Source: Planctomycetota bacterium (lineage in GTDB: Bacteria > Planctomycetota > PLA2 > JAEUHO01). Taken from it: DNA of 64,000 nt. The letters are not shown here. Where the stretch lies: positions 32,213 to 96,212 of the forward strand of contig CBDCWP010000043.1 of NCBI GenBank assembly GCA_965223505.1, in the 5' to 3' direction. Below, a report on this DNA, generated by a model with database tools, continues.

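Follow-up and report, generated by a model that had tools for sequence, protein, structure and literature searches.

Our analysis strongly supports the reading of 46508..47530 as a real selenoprotein gene, one more of the known UxxC class, in which a single in-frame TGA at residue 65 separates two ORFs that together would encode one thiol-disulfide oxidoreductase. The features of this gene are as follows:

46508, + strand, ATG start codon, with GGGAG 8 nt upstream
46508..46702, + strand, upstream ORF of 64 codons with a hydrophobic, signal-peptide-like N-terminus, ending ...GRLILLELFSTT at the TGA at 46700-46702
47528-47530, + strand, TAG stop codon of the joined frame, with no other stop after the TGA at 46700-46702

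Direct reading of the sequence bore out two statements of the first-pass annotation, namely that the ORF ending at 46702 and the ORF from 46781 share a frame, and that a hairpin lies 14 nt past the TGA (TCAGGT-CGGGC-ACCTGA, at 46717-46733). The downstream ORF is called from GTG 46781 in the ORF listing of the window because this is the first start codon available there. Reading through 46508..47530 gives a product of 340 residues with the motif T-T-U-G-P-C-K-T-Q-V-G-H-L-N, in which Sec65 would be the attacking residue and Cys68 the resolving residue of the predicted active site. G-V-P128 forms the cis-Pro loop, and Gln71 presumably occupies the position of ResA Glu80. By inspection, the N-termini of this protein and of its homologs are hydrophobic and carry an AxA-like site, and they resemble signal peptides cleaved by signal peptidase I; the mature product would be a soluble periplasmic oxidoreductase of the ResA/TlpA type.

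The two ORFs together make up one thioredoxin fold. With U replaced by C, the joined protein passes the Pfam gathering thresholds for both AhpC-TSA (residues 28-141, 54.8 bits against a cutoff of 26) and Redoxin (residues 28-148, 36.5 bits against 26.6), with the C/UxxC motif where helix alpha1 begins. When only the downstream ORFs went into a profile, it aligned just to residues ~53-151 of ResA and redoxin crystal structures. The downstream ORF therefore lacks beta1, CxxC and the first part of helix alpha1, exactly the pieces that the upstream ORF supplies. In the AlphaFold2 prediction for the full-length product, pLDDT is 82-91 near the active site and residue 65 directly precedes the helix at 67-85, and a Foldseek comparison showed that the N-terminal domain of the model superposes on the entire ResA, 4nmu and DsbE chains (target-normalised TM 0.74-0.81, 133-146 columns). 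The NCBIfam ResA model matches residues 9-161 with E = 2.5e-23, yet the score is under the cutoff of this subfamily (NF002854, 82.9 bits against 170). Scores were likewise below cutoff for the TlpA equivalog NF047696 (31.6 bits against 230), for the ResA-like WAxxUGC (seleno)protein family NF041054, the second NCBIfam match (31.8 bits against 300), and for the SelL-related redox protein family NF040769 (27.8 bits against 120). Membership in NF041054 was ruled out on its motif as well as its score, the protein carrying FSTT-U-GPC, i.e., UxxC, and not WAxxUGC. Since it misses all four cutoffs, we take the protein to belong to an unmodelled subfamily outside the curated ResA, TlpA, WAxxUGC and SelL-related families.

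A search covering 5.8 billion proteins identified about 55 homologs (38-69% identity). All are called as proteins of 203-282 aa, and their gene calls begin at VGHLN or shortly behind it, within a few codons of the TGA; one call of 258 aa carries the NCBI name "TlpA family protein disulfide reductase." We recovered the DNA of 21 homologous loci, of which 10 come from GTDB MAGs of Planctomycetota, 5 from exact look-up, and 6, the whole contribution of the metagenome scan, from JGI/ENA metagenomes. With the window included, the codon position is TGA in 22 of 22 sequences and TAA or TAG in none, with the conserved stretch (G)R(L/V)(I/V)(L/F)(L/F)E(L/F)(F/W)xTx before it and GPC after it. The tblastn HSPs pass unbroken over the TGA; for example, locus L018 is 61% identical across all 340 residues. 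The expectation that relatives would conserve the frame on both sides of the TGA was thus confirmed by HSPs that cross it and by its presence at every locus. Over the 40 codons 5′ of the TGA, identity to the window is 47-68% in 18 of 20 compared loci and 28-30% in L020 and L021, which are the most distant. In the former 18 loci, the third positions of these 40 codons diverge more than the first and second positions, as expected of translated sequence under purifying selection.

The Cys-containing orthologs predicted for the UGA position were also found. Among the 46 clusters that carry the C-terminal domain of this protein, 6 contain full-length proteins of 322-334 aa, and most of the others are truncated forms. 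Alignment places Cys at the TGA column in four of these six, as it does in a more distant homolog, P0057; the motifs of the remaining two were read from their sequences, outside the alignment.

Active-site segments of the six full-length proteins
P0203: LFELFSTGCGPCRAQVGHLN, Cys at the TGA column
P0219: FFGTYCGPCKQQV, Cys at the TGA column
P0225 and P0234: WATWCGPC, Cys at the TGA column
P0228: divergent CPRC motif, read from sequence
P0229: SxxC motif, read from sequence

Selenoprotein genes are classically recognised by this combination of conservation on both sides of the TGA and orthologs with Cys.

Analysis of the region 3′ of the TGA showed that a short hairpin, a putative bacterial SECIS, is possible between +13 and +34 in each of the 22 sequences (U of UGA = +1), with four different sequence solutions.

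Hairpin variants following the TGA
Variant A: window, L001, L004, L009-L011, L016 and L018; UCAGGU(G)-GGU-(C)ACCUGA, pairs 18-24 with 28-34
Variant B: 12 loci; GUGNCC(A)-GGU-(U)GGNCAC, pairs 14-19 with 25-30
L020 variant: a distant member; GAGGUGC-CGUGCC-GCACCUC
L021 variant: a distant member; GUGAGG-UUGAUU-CCUCAC

The loop of variant A is CGGGC in the window and in L004, and in L020 and L021 the peptide after the TGA differs and the hairpin position is retained. When segments were recoded synonymously with the codon usage of the family, 22 of 22 native segments folded better than the average (mean z -1.95). Pair 17-27 of variant B is C-G in 7 loci, G-C in 4 and U-A in 1; its 5′ side is the middle nucleotide of a variable codon (Ala, Gly or Val), and its 3′ side is the synonymous third position of the Gly codon. 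The proposed register of variant B has 97% of cells paired, compared to 35-46% with the partner slid by 1-3 columns, and its covariation score was reached by 0 of 500 shuffles. The variant A helix is invariant in its eight sequences and gives no covariation evidence either way. A Leu codon in the hairpin is CUG in 8 of 8 variant A sequences, where G33 pairs with C19, and CUC in 11 of 12 variant B sequences. A neighbour-joining tree places variant A both in the paralogous clade and in the subclade of the window, and variant B in a large subclade plus scattered members; with this distribution, the hairpin register must have changed at least once or twice. Gly73 stands where the aligned Cys-form relatives carry Pro, and its codon, GGN, makes up the loop of the hairpin, which points to a constraint of the SECIS on the protein sequence.

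The consensus for bacterial SECIS elements describes a loop of 3-9 nt with a G in the first two loop nucleotides, an upper stem of 4-16 bp, a distance of 16-37 nt from the UGA, and an MFE of at most -7.5 kcal/mol (PMC13188914). The geometry of the hairpin in the window lies within this model (6-bp stem, loop CGGGC, 20 nt spacing), and the hairpins of its relatives fit the model in every respect, at -9 to -13.6 kcal/mol. The window's own hairpin, with GGG and not GGU in its loop, is the weakest of the set, at -7.0 kcal/mol alone against the model limit of -7.5 and with a pair probability of ~0.4; it reaches -14.0 kcal/mol with a tentative and poorly conserved lower stem, in which the UGA region pairs with GCUUCA and which relatives share only in part. 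Rfam searches identified no SECIS or other relevant family, either in the whole window at gathering thresholds or in 46600-46850 at E <= 10.

Several Planctomycetes have complete Sec machinery, and thioredoxin-like and AhpC/TSA selenoprotein candidates, each annotated as two genes, have been reported in this group (PMC4807772). ARAGORN found no tRNA genes in the 64-kb window. In the MAG MO_035.B4 (locus L004), the ortholog is 61% identical and has hairpin variant A, and 4 kb downstream of it ARAGORN identified a tRNA-Sec gene (anticodon TCA), which scores 70.9 bits with Rfam RF01852 against a gathering threshold of 47. An approximate E. coli SelD query gave no tblastn match in those of the homologous loci that it was run against, a weak negative, as these cover little of each genome. 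TGA stops 9 of the 25 high-confidence ORFs of the window, and the genetic code is therefore standard. An independent pointer is a second TGA-containing gene from a separate family, located ~5 kb away at 41340..42617, whose TGA is kept in 5 of 5 loci examined, and which suggests that this organism decodes Sec. The family of this second gene also occurs in a culturable relative, Phycisphaerae bacterium RAS1.

The last ~165 residues of the protein are predicted, at very high confidence, to form a helix bundle (AlphaFold2 pLDDT 94-98). An exhaustive HMMER search of 1.84 billion representatives found this domain in only the 46 clusters, and it has no Pfam match and no PDB sequence match. Foldseek against the PDB returned only TPR-like proteins (such as BamD, YbgF and YfgM) at E > 0.05; we do not claim homology to them. 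The domain would most likely bind protein. The operon with the downstream DUF1570/TPR gene at 47671..49896, proposed in the first-pass annotation, is not a conserved pairing: no homolog of that gene lies near any of the other 21 loci, where the neighbourhoods differ, which rules it out as a conserved partner. A tentative and rather doubtful reading of the family as a whole is that it is a Planctomycetota-restricted, two-domain periplasmic redox family that joins a TlpA-like domain to a private helical domain, with Sec as the predominant and possibly ancestral state, and with a SECIS that moved among at least two registers and shaped the protein (Gly for Pro). The helical domain would then be a dedicated substrate-recruiting module, making the protein a seleno-dependent extracytoplasmic reductase with a specific client.

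The public gene calls examined for Sec-form members, including the ~55 close homologs, are all truncated, so that databases lack both the active site and the export signal. With the correction, the selenoproteome of these uncultured Planctomycetota gains a secreted selenoprotein, and this gene and the second TGA gene 5 kb away would mark the organism as a Sec user. The family is also a compact natural data set for the evolution of a SECIS inside coding sequence, with four hairpin solutions at one position and an amino-acid-changing site that covaries with a synonymous site. Sec-for-Cys replacement in CxxC oxidoreductases is already well known, and we see no new biochemical principle here; the main value, of modest interest, lies in the annotation correction and in a neat example of SECIS evolution within a coding sequence.

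The E. coli fdhF SECIS has its loop, A-GGU-CU, at +21..+26. Like it, the putative SECIS is a hairpin inside the ORF that directly follows the UGA and has GGU or GGG in its apical loop ~20 nt past the UGA, and variant B comes close with A-GGU-U at +20..+24; the candidate element in the window is much shorter and weaker than that of fdhF, with no bulged U evident. The UxxC forms of TlpA-like, thiol-disulfide isomerase-like and Redoxin-family proteins (cd02966, PF08534, PF00578) are catalogued in Zhang et al. 2006 (PMC1794560) and in Table 1 of a 2026 review (PMC13188914), with representatives such as MGB1650493.1 and HEU0032618.1. This class and the gene studied here share a thioredoxin-fold oxidoreductase with Sec for the first Cys of CxxC, a SECIS hairpin (putative in our gene) within the coding region close behind the UGA, existing Cys homologs, and gene calls that are usually split or truncated; our protein differs in its extra ~165-aa C-terminal helical domain. 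NF041054 proteins likewise combine a ResA-like fold and an active-site Sec, but the TT-U-GPC motif differs from WAxxUGC. The best matches in both sequence and structure are B. subtilis ResA, B. anthracis 4nmu, Bradyrhizobium TlpA and CcmG/DsbE, which are extracytoplasmic, as is predicted for this protein, and have a CxxC motif at the N-terminus of alpha1 and a cis-Pro loop. Unlike this group, the protein encoded at 46508..47530 has Sec in place of Cys, carries the C-terminal helical domain, and is predicted to be soluble, with its N-terminus serving as a cleavable signal peptide and not as a membrane anchor.

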